Source: a phage. Taken from it: 64,000 bases of DNA. The notes under the pieces were generated by a model. That model was not told where the DNA came from, searched no databases, and saw nothing but the letters and a program-made list of their open reading frames with translations. The stretch lies in assembly GCA_025677605.1 (NCBI GenBank), contig GCA_025677605.1_4110.1; one strand, 5' to 3'. The translations under genes were made by a program, and so were the position numbers. Numbering within the stretch: the stretch's first letter is position 1; the number at the start of each line of letters is the position of its first letter. Shown in pieces: positions 49,217 to 62,425 of this stretch.

Positions 49217-49228
49217 TTTATACCTCTA

Positions 49229-49537
49229 TTATAGGATGATTTTGTTGTCAGGGACAATCAACGCTGGCTTATCTTCTAGAGTCTTAATTGCTTCAACATA
49301 AGCATCAACCAGTGCAGGGTTTGCATCACTGATACTGATGATGTTAGATTTGAAGAAAATAACACCTTTTTCTGAACTAATAAATTCTAGATAATCACGT
49401 AGAATGATTTCACCTTTTTCGTCAGTACCTAGCTGTGCTGGGTAGTTAACTACTACTGCTTCTGGAGCATCGGTTTGTAGAACTGCTAGTACTGGGCCAA
49501 CGTTGTTGATGTTTAGTAGTTTAACGGTAATAGTCAT
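49229..49537 (-). CDS. Hypothetical protein (start trimmed to internal ATG)
   Basis: Track ORF 49229-49687 overlaps the upstream gene by 130 nt; ATG at 49537 (MTITVKLL) has an AAGGA RBS just after the upstream stop. Confidence 0.5.
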   Translation of the reverse strand: MTITVKLLNINNVGPVLAVLQTDAPEAVVVNYPAQLGTDEKGEIILRDYLEFISSEKGVIFFKSNIISISDANPALVDAYVEAIKTLEDKPALIVPDNKIIL

Positions 49538-49556
49538 TTTTGTCAAGTCCTTTTGT

Positions 49557-54075: not shown

Positions 54076-54094
54076 AATTAAAACTCCATAAGAA

Positions 54095-54122
54095 AAGGGA
54101 CAGAATTAATCTGTCCCTTTAT
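54095..54122 (-). terminator. Intrinsic terminator
   Basis: GGGACAG-AATTAAT-CTGTCCC hairpin followed by a U-tract on the minus-strand transcript. Confidence 0.65.
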
Positions 54123-54126
54123 TATA

Positions 54127-54459
54127 TTACTCTTCTTCGTCAGTTACATCAACTACAACTGGACGGTCTGGATGGTTTCGGCGGTGCAATTTAATGCTTT
54201 TGTCTTTACTGAATACAGTTTCCATTTTTTCGAATGAATCGACAATCGCCTTGTATAAATCTGCATCATCGGCAGTAACAGACTTACCACCTGATGTTAA
54301 AGTTACTGCGTACTGTGTCTTATGCTCTTTTTTCACATGAACACCAATATTCAGTACTGAAGAATCACTAAATTTATTTAGAGTGTTTGCTTCTTGATGA
54401 ATTGCGTCATGGATTGCTGGAGTAATATCAACATTACCTTGAATAACTAGATTTAGCAT
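54127..54459 (-). CDS. Ribosome hibernation promoting factor-like protein (HPF/YfiA/RaiA family)
   Basis: 110 aa colinear with bacterial HPF: MLNLVIQGNVDITPAIHDAI vs MQLNITGNNVEITEALREFV, then VHVKKEH...TLTSGGKSV...DLYKAIVDSFEKME. Confidence 0.8.
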   Translation of the reverse strand: MLNLVIQGNVDITPAIHDAIHQEANTLNKFSDSSVLNIGVHVKKEHKTQYAVTLTSGGKSVTADDADLYKAIVDSFEKMETVFSKDKSIKLHRRNHPDRPVVVDVTDEEE

Positions 54460-54473
54460 ACTTCACCTTCCTT

Positions 54474-55400
54474 TTAGATTGAGCTTAACAAAGTATCCGC
54501 TCTGTTTGTTACTTGCCTATACCATAAGGAATTTTTGATTTCTCTTTTAAACTTCTTATGATTTTCAGCTTCAGCACTTCTCCATAGTTTATTAAATGAG
54601 GCCAACTTATCAACACCCATCGTGTAAGCCATGTCAAAGAGAATACGTTGTTGGTCTTTTGTAAGATTTACTGCATTTTTTTTCTTCATTAGAGTTGTAA
54701 AGTCATTATATGTCCTTTTCAAATCTTGAAGTAATAGTTTATGTGCTTGTGCGTTGGTAATACCGTTTCTGTACTTAATTGCATCAGATTCTTTCTTACC
54801 TAAGTAATGTCCATAACCTATTGTATAATTACCTTTCATATCCTTATAAGGATGAAATTTTGAATTGTAGAAAGGAACTCCAACTTTTCCCCCAAGTAAA
54901 CGTCTTTTGTTCTTGGACTGAAATTCAATTGAACCTTCAGCTTCTTTGATGTGTGCTACTATTTCAGGATCATTATAATCGAAAAGTACTACCACATCAG
55001 GTAACAGTACGTCTTTCAAATCCTCTTTTGTTGGGATAAAGATACCCTGCGATGTATGAAGTTTAGCATTAAGATTGATATTCTTCAATACTGTAACGTA
55101 ATCTTCAAACAACACATTATGCGGTTTAAACTTCTTAGCTATCGAATGATAACTATCACCGTATTCAACAGTATAATGTTTCTCGCTGCCTGGAACTACT
55201 TTAGGTGTATACCCTTTAGGTAATTCCTGCTTTTGAATTTGTGTAACTTGCGGTTTTAAATTGTGCACCTGACTTTCGCCCGATGATGATGCACGATCAT
55301 GTTGAGAAAAACCATAAAATCCAAACGCAGCGATGATAACAAGTGAAACTAATAAGCCTATAGCTGTCTTAGTTTTAGGTGTTTGTATCGCTATTGTCAA
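54474..55400 (-). CDS. Endolysin: N-terminal signal-anchor, LysM, T4-lysozyme-like (GH24) domain
   Basis: Hydrophobic anchor GLLVSLVIIAAFGFYGF; LysM-like HYTVEYGDSYHSIAKKF; GNYTIGYGH and LWYRQVTNRADTLL match T4 lysozyme YYTIGIGH and RWYNQTPNRAKRVI. Confidence 0.85.
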   Translation of the reverse strand: MTIAIQTPKTKTAIGLLVSLVIIAAFGFYGFSQHDRASSSGESQVHNLKPQVTQIQKQELPKGYTPKVVPGSEKHYTVEYGDSYHSIAKKFKPHNVLFEDYVTVLKNINLNAKLHTSQGIFIPTKEDLKDVLLPDVVVLFDYNDPEIVAHIKEAEGSIEFQSKNKRRLLGGKVGVPFYNSKFHPYKDMKGNYTIGYGHYLGKKESDAIKYRNGITNAQAHKLLLQDLKRTYNDFTTLMKKKNAVNLTKDQQRILFDMAYTMGVDKLASFNKLWRSAEAENHKKFKREIKNSLWYRQVTNRADTLLSSI

Positions 55401-55533
55401 AAACGCCTCCTTTGTTTGCGTGTTATGATGAGCAATTACAAAGAGGGCTTATGAGGCCATTTGCAAAAGCCTCATCGGACTTTCTACAATACTTTCAGTA
55501 CTGAAAAGGTAACTTTCATTCTGTACATGTAAG

Positions 55534-55562
55534 TAGTATAGCATCTTTCAATTTCATATCAA
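55534..55562 (-). promoter_or_regulatory. Putative sigma70-type promoter (TTGATA-16nt-TATACT)
   Basis: Minus strand reads TTGATA, 16-nt spacer, TATACT; the 14-bp palindrome TTTCAGTACTGAAA (55493-55506) lies in the predicted leader. Confidence 0.4.
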
Positions 55563-55647
55563 GTAAAATCTTGATATTTCTTTTGGTTATAATTATGGGT
55601 ATATTAATACCCATTTTATTTAGCCAATTGTATGACAAACCTATAGG

Positions 55648-56058
55648 TTAGTCGTAGTACGTTCTCCCTACTGTGAGGTGATAACGTAAGTACTTTGATT
55701 GTAATCCTAGTTCATTGCGAATGTGTCCAATGAATTCATCATCGAACTCTATGATAAAGAACGAGCCTGGTTTCTTTTTATCTTTCACTTGAACAATATC
55801 AGGATTGAATTTTATTTTAATTTTTTGACCATCGTACTTTTTCCAGTACTCTGGATTTGGTGGCACTTCACCTCGAACAATACTGACGTGTGCTCCCCAT
55901 TGTGGGTCTTTAACATCAATGTGTAGATCAGTTCTGATGAAGTACTGGTAGTATCTAACCAACTGTAATGGAAGTTGCAGTACTAACCAGAAGTCCTTCT
56001 TCTTTTTCATAGTGCCACGGTCTGGATCATACACCAGAGTTCCTTCCATTTCAATCAT
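55648..56058 (-). CDS. Hypothetical protein
   Basis: 136-aa ORF. Confidence 0.6.
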   Translation of the reverse strand: MIEMEGTLVYDPDRGTMKKKKDFWLVLQLPLQLVRYYQYFIRTDLHIDVKDPQWGAHVSIVRGEVPPNPEYWKKYDGQKIKIKFNPDIVQVKDKKKPGSFFIIEFDDEFIGHIRNELGLQSKYLRYHLTVGRTYYD

Positions 56059-61705: not shown

Positions 61706-62425
61706 TCACTTCGTTCTCTCGTAACTCAAGAATTCGTTTCGTTATCTACGATAACTCACTCATTCATATTAATTAATATTGTATTGTACTTTTAAAGATT
61801 GACGGGATTTGTTGAGGACATTTTCATCCCCCCGCAGGGGAATGATATTAAAAAAGAACCAATGAAGGTTCTTGATTTTGACGCTGATGGCATCGGAATT
61901 TATCGAATTGCGAATTTCTCCATATTTTGGACGGATCAAGGGTGTCCAATTTTTGGAGAACGAAAGCGGGTTGCTCTGTTTCTCTCTATCGCAGTCATAT
62001 GCAACGGTCGCAGGTATTTTCATCCCCTGCACTAAAGTACTGGAACTATTCGATCAATTCAGTACTCGTTTTACTCAAATTTTGGGTGCAACTTTCCCGT
62101 AGAAAAATTGACCGCTTGTTTTAAGTAAAACTCCCTTAGCAAATCTGGTAAGGTGCGATCCTTATACATCTATCGAGGAACTCTCTGTATGCTTATCGGA
62201 GTTCTTTATTGAGCCGTGTCGCCGTGTGATCCGTGTCTTATTTCGCGTTTGTATGAATGCACTTGGATGGTACTAACGGGTTTCTTTTGCTCATCGCCTC
62301 AGTGGGAAGGCTCATCTATCCTTTACATTTTCAAGAGAAGTAGGTTCTTCTTGTCCGTTGTTAAAACGTCCACTGACATTTTCCATTACAATATAATTAT
62401 AGCACAATATAAAGTATTGTCCCAA
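61706..62425. other. GC-richer non-coding island (~720 bp), candidate structured RNA or origin-like element
   Basis: No convincing ORF (track ORFs overlap each other, lack RBS); about 45-48% GC in sampled 60-nt stretches; three CCGTGT iterons at 62213-62240; duplicated TTTTCATCCCC..GCAGGGG motif at ~61822 and ~62013. Confidence 0.5.

Follow-up and report, generated by a model that had tools for sequence, protein, structure and literature searches.

A conserved structured leader predicted upstream of the endolysin gene of Rak2-like jumbo phages

In Escherichia phage A4, a 355-kb jumbo myovirus of the genus Asteriusvirus, the gene for a transmembrane (TM)-LysM-lysozyme endolysin, A4_528, is separated from the preceding gene, A4_527, by a gap of 247 bp (55401-55647). 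We examined this gap within a 64-kb stretch of DNA (the window) that is the reverse complement of A4 sequence (ON286972.1, 99.8% identity) and in which the genes around the gap all lie on the minus strand. Such a length is unusual: intergenic gaps in the window have a median of 12 nucleotides (nt). Its promoter and leader are conserved, and the leader contains a hairpin (P0), an 11-mer and a second hairpin (P1); P0 and P1 covary, the 11-mer is complementary to the 5' strand of P1, and each genome has one such module. To judge from comparison of the sequences, the module, of ~65 nt, is a previously undescribed structured cis-regulatory RNA motif that is common to all Rak2-like jumbo phages. The reading that we favour, with confidence somewhat above even, is that a sigma-70 promoter drives a unit of the endolysin gene and an HPF gene, and that the structured leader limits translation of a toxic, membrane-anchored endolysin.

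The leader module and its conservation

Leaders were taken as the regions upstream of full-length homologues of the A4 lysozyme in GenBank phages, IMG/VR and metagenomes, which were collected with an alignment-based scan (a single-protein scan of viral contigs returned 121Q only). The 18 distinct leaders come from Asteriusvirus, Mimasvirus (CBB) and its relatives, Eneladusvirus (BF), the 7t3 group and Alcyoneusvirus (RaK2). Outside A4's own clade, the lysozymes are 46-57% identical to that of A4, while in all Asteriusvirus relatives, the leader is 83-88% identical from the 11-mer to the start codon. The same architecture of P0, 11-mer, A-rich linker and P1 is found throughout (18/18 leaders).

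The 11-mer, GTAGAAAGTCC (55477-55487, minus strand), is unique in the window and exact in 16/18 leaders, with one change in the leader L138 and the form TTGTTAAGTCC in RaK2. P0 varies in sequence among the leaders and always directly adjoins the 11-mer; in A4, it has the form CAGUACU-GAA-AGUAUUG (55487-55503, minus strand) and is in register with the P0 of other genera, with the outer pairs AGUA...UAUU as in CBB and L138. P1 (AUGAGGC-UUUUGCAAAUG-GCCUCAU, 55451-55475, minus strand) consists of a covarying stem, whose outer part reads GAGGC, GCGAC or GUGGC with matching partners and is shifted in BF, and a loop, CUUUGUGCA, that is conserved across genera. The AAGTCC core of the 11-mer lies 78-96 nt from the start codon, which is TTG or GTG in 17/18 leaders and ATG in RaK2.

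Taken together, P0 and P1 have 82% paired cells compared with 41-50% in slid controls, and a covariation score of 0.366 compared with 0.07-0.12, with 10 compensatory pairs, a score reached by 0/500 shuffles; it counts against both figures that the alignment behind them was registered by hand. With P1 on a MAFFT alignment that had no hand registration, 90% of cells are paired (36-63% when slid) and the covariation score is 0.254 (0.02-0.07). A further helix can form between the 11-mer (55487-55478) and the P1 5' strand and loop, GGCUUUUGC (55471-55463), over an interval of 55463-55487 on the minus strand. This alternative helix is 87.5% paired, compared with 39-58% when slid, and its one or two compensatory changes come from RaK2, while RNAalifold on the raw MAFFT alignment independently gives it as GUA-G-AAAGUC : GRCUUU-(G)-UGC in 18/18 leaders. 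As the alternative helix is incompatible with full P1, the module would have two stable states or form a pseudoknot.

A covariance model of the 11-mer and P1 has one match per jumbo-phage locus, at 35-62 bits, and these matches include BF-type and new metagenomic leaders outside its training set; in 19 loci with distant lysozymes, there is no match. Within the window, the model matches once, at 53.8 bits, with the next best at 9.5. Pattern scans also find the module once per genome, always at the TM-LysM-lysozyme gene, using a tighter pattern than GTAGAAAGTCCN{8,18}TGCA, which was too loose and gave mostly chance matches. Compensatory stems, conserved unpaired nucleotides and a fixed genomic context are the features expected of a structured cis-regulatory RNA, and the module displays all three. 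A known RNA family was rejected, as Rfam 15 (4227 families) gave no relevant match in the gap region, in the window as a whole or in 7 relatives, even at E values up to 5-10. A hammerhead-like core, suggested by the strings GAAA, GUC and CGAUGAG, was dismissed on visual inspection, as conservation of CUGAUGA does not extend beyond A4, and the 11-mer and loop are unlikely to be a phage-sigma promoter, given a spacing that varies from 11 to 14 nt and a single copy per genome.

Promoter, ribosome-binding site and proposed mechanism

The initial annotation of the gap, made by a model from the DNA letters and their open reading frames (ORFs), reported a promoter-like TTGATA-16nt-TATACT element on the minus strand, which we recover with its end at 55535, one base from the 55534 given there. 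The -35 hexamer TTGATA lies at 55557-55562 (TTGTAA, TTGATA or TTGACA in relatives), and the extended -10 element, TGCTATACT, lies at 55535-55543, with the TATACT hexamer at 55540-55535 and a TG at -15/-14. The two hexamers match the sigma-70 consensus at 10/12 positions across a spacer of 16 nt. In an alignment of A4 with six Asteriusvirus relatives, the 15-nt -10 block ATGCTATACTACTTA and the TTG of the -35 are invariant in all 7 sequences while the spacer varies, which is the pattern expected of a working promoter. Equivalents are present at the corresponding place in Turkey5 (TTGTAA-16-TGCTATAAT) and EJP2 (TTGACA-17-TAGACT), and RaK2 also has an equivalent promoter near its leader. A sigma-70 extended -10 promoter is the best-supported assignment for the A4 element, and transcription would then be predicted to start at A55528 (55526-55530, minus strand), 7 nt past the -10, giving a 5' untranslated region of ~128 nt.

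Across the window, TTGnnn followed by TGnTATAhT has 9 matches, all on the gene-rich strand and ~6 of them in gaps upstream of genes. In CBB (L011/L142), we also observe a TTGACA-17-TAAAAT element ~95 nt 5' of the 11-mer; as TTGACA-17-TA(A/C/T)(A/T)AT, with a varying spacer, it is kept in all 8 CBB/BF-type genomes, where it sits inside the coding sequence of the upstream gene, and it is absent from the promoter tables of the CBB paper.

At the other end of the leader, every lineage has a segment 3' of P1 that is predicted to be complementary to the Shine-Dalgarno (SD)/start region, with sequences that differ by lineage. In A4, the anti-SD segment GCCCUCUUUGU (55438-55448, minus strand) pairs with ACAAAGGAGGC (55405-55415, minus strand), which includes the SD AAGGAGG (55412-55406); for A4 and 121Q together, the pairing is GCC(C/A)UCUUUGU with ACAAAGGAGGC. 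The corresponding pairs are CUCCUGUUGCU with AGCAAAUAGGAG in EJP2, UCUUCCUUAUU with AAUAAGGAGGA in CBB, where an additional second hairpin covers the UUG start codon, CUCACUGA with UCAGUGAG across the GUG start in the 7t3 group, and UUCUGUAU with AUACAGAA immediately before the AUG in RaK2. Minimum-energy folding pairs the SD or start codon in 17/18 leaders, and the mean unpaired probability from -14 to +2 is 0.32 in the 18 leaders compared with 0.49 in 66 window genes. This reduction in predicted accessibility of the ribosome-binding site is consistent across the leaders but not extreme, with a modest effect size.

Coupling to a leader peptide or upstream ORF was also considered and set aside, as short AUG ORFs run through P1 in A4 and 121Q while none is found in L143, L144 or 7t3. 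In two GenBank records (L004 and L006, 2472-2609 in each), a 45-aa 'hypothetical protein' reads through the 11-mer, P1 and the anti-SD segment and overlaps the endolysin start; this ORF is not kept in A4 and was probably annotated in error.

The gene behind the leader, A4_528 (54474-55400, minus strand), starts with TTG at 55400-55398 and encodes a 308-aa protein whose hydrophobic N-terminal segment is accompanied by a LysM-like region and a Phage_lysozyme domain; the protein is predicted to be an endolysin of the signal-arrest-release (SAR) type. Its CBB homologue is a SAR-type endolysin by prediction and was apparently toxic on attempted cloning (PMC5259590), and the phAPEC6 orthologue, Gp293, is absent from virions, in which the tail lysozyme was detected (PMC7247149). 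For these reasons, it is reasonable to call A4_528 an endolysin, a non-virion enzyme by prediction. An HPF/RaiA gene (ribosome hibernation; 54127-54459) starts 14 nt 3' of the endolysin gene and is followed on the gene strand by a canonical intrinsic terminator, GGGACAGA-UUAAU-UCUGUCCC + UUUUCUUAU (54120-54094), the two together occupying 54094-54459 on the minus strand. The endolysin and HPF genes therefore appear to form one two-gene transcription unit that ends at this terminator, and the record of phage G17 annotates a terminator at the matching place after HPF. The gene order endolysin, HPF and, further along, CCA-adding enzyme is maintained across genera.

In the mechanism that we favour, host sigma-70 RNA polymerase would start near A55528 from the extended -10 promoter (55562-55535), and the transcript would run from the leader through the endolysin and HPF genes to the terminator. 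Within the leader, P0 would be followed by the single-stranded 11-mer GUAGAAAGUCC and then by P1, with the 11-mer able to pair with the P1 5' strand instead, and the lineage-specific segment 3' of the module would pair with the ribosome-binding site (GCCCUCUUUGU:ACAAAGGAGGC in A4). The anti-SD helix and the weak TTG start would together keep translation of the toxic SAR-type endolysin low. From the modelled folds, we infer that SD pairing limits translation in vivo and that the 5' module may modulate it in response to some trigger; the 11-mer and P1 could act as a switch, as a protein or RNase site, or as a stability element.

A number of results weigh against this mechanism. Promoter-like hexamer pairs are not enriched (23 compared with 27.5 in shuffles, in a 5-kb scan), and with hexamers at chance frequency, the match alone is no proof and conservation is the evidence. 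For Asteriusvirus, CBB and RaK2, a literature search turned up neither transcriptome studies nor mapped 5' ends. The clades of 121Q and TH47 have a P0 that is either weak or shifted in register, and in Turkey5 and RaK2 the 5' arm of P0 overlaps the putative -10. The minimum-energy fold of Turkey5 leaves the SD open, and the A4 accessibility of 0.34 is only the 9th lowest of 66 genes. In constrained folding, the P1 and alternative-helix states often differ by only a few kcal/mol, and forcing one or the other leaves accessibility unchanged (mean of 0.31 compared with 0.30), such that a link between the 5' module and translation is conjectural. A switch chain of five strands (11-mer : P1 5' : P1 3' : anti-SD : SD), attractive by eye in CBB, was likewise rejected, as constrained folding shows no consistent change in SD accessibility.

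That predicted SD accessibility is the same in both helix states speaks for a different role of the module, in which it is docked on or processed by a trans-acting factor, such as an RNase, a small RNA or an RNA-binding protein of phage or host origin, that sets mRNA stability, 5' processing or elongation, the last by nut- or put-like antitermination, with the SD hairpin acting as a separate constitutive damper. Such a role would also suit the invariance of the 11-mer between lysozymes of such low identity, which is more than pairing requires, the fairly constant distance from module to start codon, and the succession of single-stranded box, A-rich spacer and hairpin, which recalls a boxA-boxB layout. 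We nevertheless regard it as unlikely, since we identified no candidate factor and no antisense partner in the window, the 11-mer is unlike the boxA consensus, and each genome has the module only once, while systems of the nut type commonly act on several operons. P1, moreover, has no conserved U tract behind it and was rejected as a terminator or attenuator. We give less credence still to the idea that the module is an orphan sensor, built as a pseudoknot or a riboswitch-like aptamer, or that a dedicated RNA-binding protein of the phage uses it as an operator; in either case, the module would toggle between P1 and the alternative helix and so time endolysin translation, and hence lysis. We know of no holin-independent lysis clock in the Rak2-like clade.

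It is also conceivable, though in our view very improbable, that nothing in the gap is dedicated to the endolysin, and that its transcripts arise by read-through, the hexamers by chance in AT-rich DNA, and the palindromes described in the next section as debris of insertion and deletion. The chance frequency of promoter-like matches, the lack of a sense-strand terminator between the upstream gene and the leader, and the lineage-specific nature of both palindromes in the initial annotation are in keeping with this explanation. It is contradicted by the invariant -10 block beside a varying spacer, by the presence of the module in five lineages with covariation, and by the length of the gap relative to the median.

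Palindromes, the AGTACT motif and neighbouring features

The initial annotation saw in this gap a regulated lysis promoter with operator or RNA-hairpin control and named two elements, a perfect 14-bp palindrome, TTTCAGTACTGAAA, at 55493-55506, and an 8-bp-arm inverted repeat, ATGGGTAT-ATTA-ATACCCAT, at 55595-55614. Both are where it placed them, and the palindrome falls in the predicted leader, at +23 to +36 of the predicted transcript. The promoter and control at the RNA level survive in our reading; an operator is unlikely, and the named elements are not the conserved ones, which are the 11-mer, P1 and the anti-SD segment. Instead, both lie in A4-only insertions. The palindrome is in an insertion of ~15 nt that is missing from all Asteriusvirus relatives and shared only by one A4-like metagenome contig (L183), which is nearly identical to A4. 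The inverted repeat, which is unique in the window, is in an A4-only stretch (55564-55647, minus strand) between the upstream stop codon and the -35, where relatives have ~20 nt; in a distant BLAST search with the gap against 50,697 phage records, query positions 1-87 (the stop codon and 84 nt) are unmatched in other phages.

The 55595-55614 repeat has a hairpin energy of -10.2 kcal/mol. On the plus (antisense) strand, it is followed by TTTATTTAG (UUUUAUUUAG), giving it the shape of a terminator, while the gene strand continues with AATTATAACC (AAUUAUAACC) and lacks the U tract of an intrinsic terminator. It might stop antisense transcripts or equally be debris of the A4-specific insertion, and on its distribution, it is an A4-only hairpin with no apparent conserved role. 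A weak promoter-like TTGCAA-18-TACAAT on the plus strand at 55461-55490 points at this hairpin, and the two could, speculatively, give an antisense RNA of ~120 nt over the start of the leader; the hexamers are at chance frequency. A second, perfect 8-bp-arm inverted repeat, ATATCAAG-N6-CTTGATAT (55556-55577), missing from the initial annotation, overlaps the -35 and has its upstream arm in the A4-only insertion. Across the window, perfect 14-bp palindromes number 12 (~6.3 expected) and 8-bp-arm inverted repeats 35 (~11 expected), and one such palindrome with two such repeats within 247 bp is far above expectation.

As the initial annotation proposed, the palindrome is part of a genome-wide motif, with 17 sites within 2 mismatches compared with 0.6 expected; TTCAGTACTGAA has 7 exact copies. 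The core, AGTACT, exceeds expectation more than any other hexamer of the window (127 copies compared with 20-33 expected), with CAGTACTG as its preferred context. It is found in all three codon phases and both gene orientations, and 7/127 copies lie between genes, in 6.7% of the bases, so that it is no denser there than inside genes. Enrichment of 4-8x is seen in every Rak2-like locus examined (A4, 121Q, CBB, BF, 7t3, RaK2 and metagenomic relatives; the window and L003-L014, L034, L060 and L173-L191). AGTACT is a clade-wide DNA signature and not a promoter-linked operator; its enrichment could reflect a site for a protein or primase, or a target of modification, and our literature search found nothing on AGTACT enrichment in Rak2-like phages.

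A4's P0 is built on the self-complementary AGTACT, and the perfect DNA dyad is apparently a side effect of P0, because the RNA hairpin of the palindrome shares its register and outer pairs with P0 of CBB and L138. The right half of the palindrome goes into P0, which overlaps the palindrome by 11 nt, and the left flank CCUUUUC can extend the helix onto GAAAG of the 11-mer. The abundance of the palindrome family, the clade-wide enrichment of its core and the overlap of the 55556-55577 repeat with the -35 could alternatively point to control at the DNA level, with the palindrome and/or that repeat as operators for a dimeric phage DNA-binding protein that recognizes the TTCAGTACTGAA motif and represses or roadblocks the endolysin promoter. 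We consider this very improbable: both elements are A4-only; the motif is mostly intragenic and no denser between genes, and is therefore not a promoter-associated operator family; the P0 dyads of other genera differ in sequence and loop length with pairing kept, which is the mark of an RNA hairpin rather than of a conserved protein site; and the palindrome, at +23 to +36 and with a core no commoner between genes, is unlikely to be an operator, as it neither overlaps the promoter nor is conserved with it in relatives.

The upstream gene, A4_527 (55648-56058, minus strand; PHROG 12204), whose stop codon forms the edge of the gap, encodes 136 aa of unassigned function, with no Pfam or PDB match in sequence searches. 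It has two H-x-S/T-x motifs (HVSIVRG and HLTVGRT), reminiscent of 2H phosphoesterases such as LigT. Two other long gene-free gaps are found in the window, at 62033-62425 (393 nt) and 49217-49556 (340 nt), the first of which opens with a match to an extended -10 promoter (TTGGGA-N15-TGCTATAAT) that would give a leader of ~360 nt. Neither gap has a tRNA or Rfam match, and there are no tRNA genes anywhere in the window.

Significance and comparison with known systems

The timing of lysis sets burst size. It is unexplored in the Rak2-like jumbo phages, a group of candidate agents for therapy and biocontrol. If the reading that we favour is correct, damping by the leader would account for the use of a host-type promoter for a toxic SAR-type endolysin without premature lysis, and would carry the principle of T4 gene e over to a distant clade in which the parts are different. 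The leader may also be part of the reason why attempts to clone the CBB homologue failed, and it could find use in keeping expression tightly damped. As a conserved, single-copy module of 65 nt that is absent from Rfam, it is a directly testable candidate RNA motif.

In having conserved unpaired nucleotides flanked by covarying stems, an alternative helix that uses a conserved strand, and an SD-sequestering segment that differs by lineage, the module resembles riboswitch-like RNAs. Unlike riboswitches, however, it is small and without a known ligand, it matches 0/4227 Rfam families, and predicted SD accessibility is independent of which of its helices forms. A further comparison is with the nut sites of phage lambda, which consist of boxA, a spacer and the boxB hairpin, and with the put RNAs of HK022. 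In the jumbo-phage module, as in these, a conserved single-stranded box and an A-rich spacer precede a hairpin whose loop is conserved, just 3' of a sigma-70 promoter, but the 11-mer is unrelated to boxA (CGCUCUUUA), the P1 loop of 11-15 nt is not a GNRA-like pentaloop, and there is one site per genome, with no N-like protein or intervening terminator identified.

For the A4 promoter, the nearest comparison is with the 'TGAAACG...TGnTATAAT' class of CBB (PMC5259590, Table S6), which is similar in its TGn extended -10, its TATA(C/A)T hexamer and its position on the coding strand upstream of a phage gene. The A4 element differs in its canonical -35, TTGATA, and 16-nt spacer, and TGRAAC...TGnTAkAnT has no match in the window.

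For the leader, the comparison is with T4 gene e, whose early transcripts fold over the ribosome-binding site and repress lysozyme translation (McPheeters et al. 1986, reviewed in PMC3014915). Its late promoters (TATAAATA) lie inside the 5' strand of the hairpin, and late transcripts thereby escape repression (PMC3014915). No TATAAATA-like late promoter is found inside any jumbo-phage leader inspected, a further point against our reading, and the T4 route of relieving repression therefore does not apply. The jumbo-phage leaders also differ in carrying the extra conserved P0/11-mer/P1 module and in their TTG or GTG starts, and the protein that they precede is a TM-LysM-lysozyme, whereas that of T4 is a soluble lysozyme. 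What the two systems have in common is a phage lysozyme or endolysin gene reached by transcripts of host RNA polymerase, an SD or start codon paired with an upstream segment of its own leader (a prediction in the jumbo phages), and the presumed purpose of avoiding premature lysis. By this analogy, the A4 leader would work like that of T4 gene e without being a member of its design.

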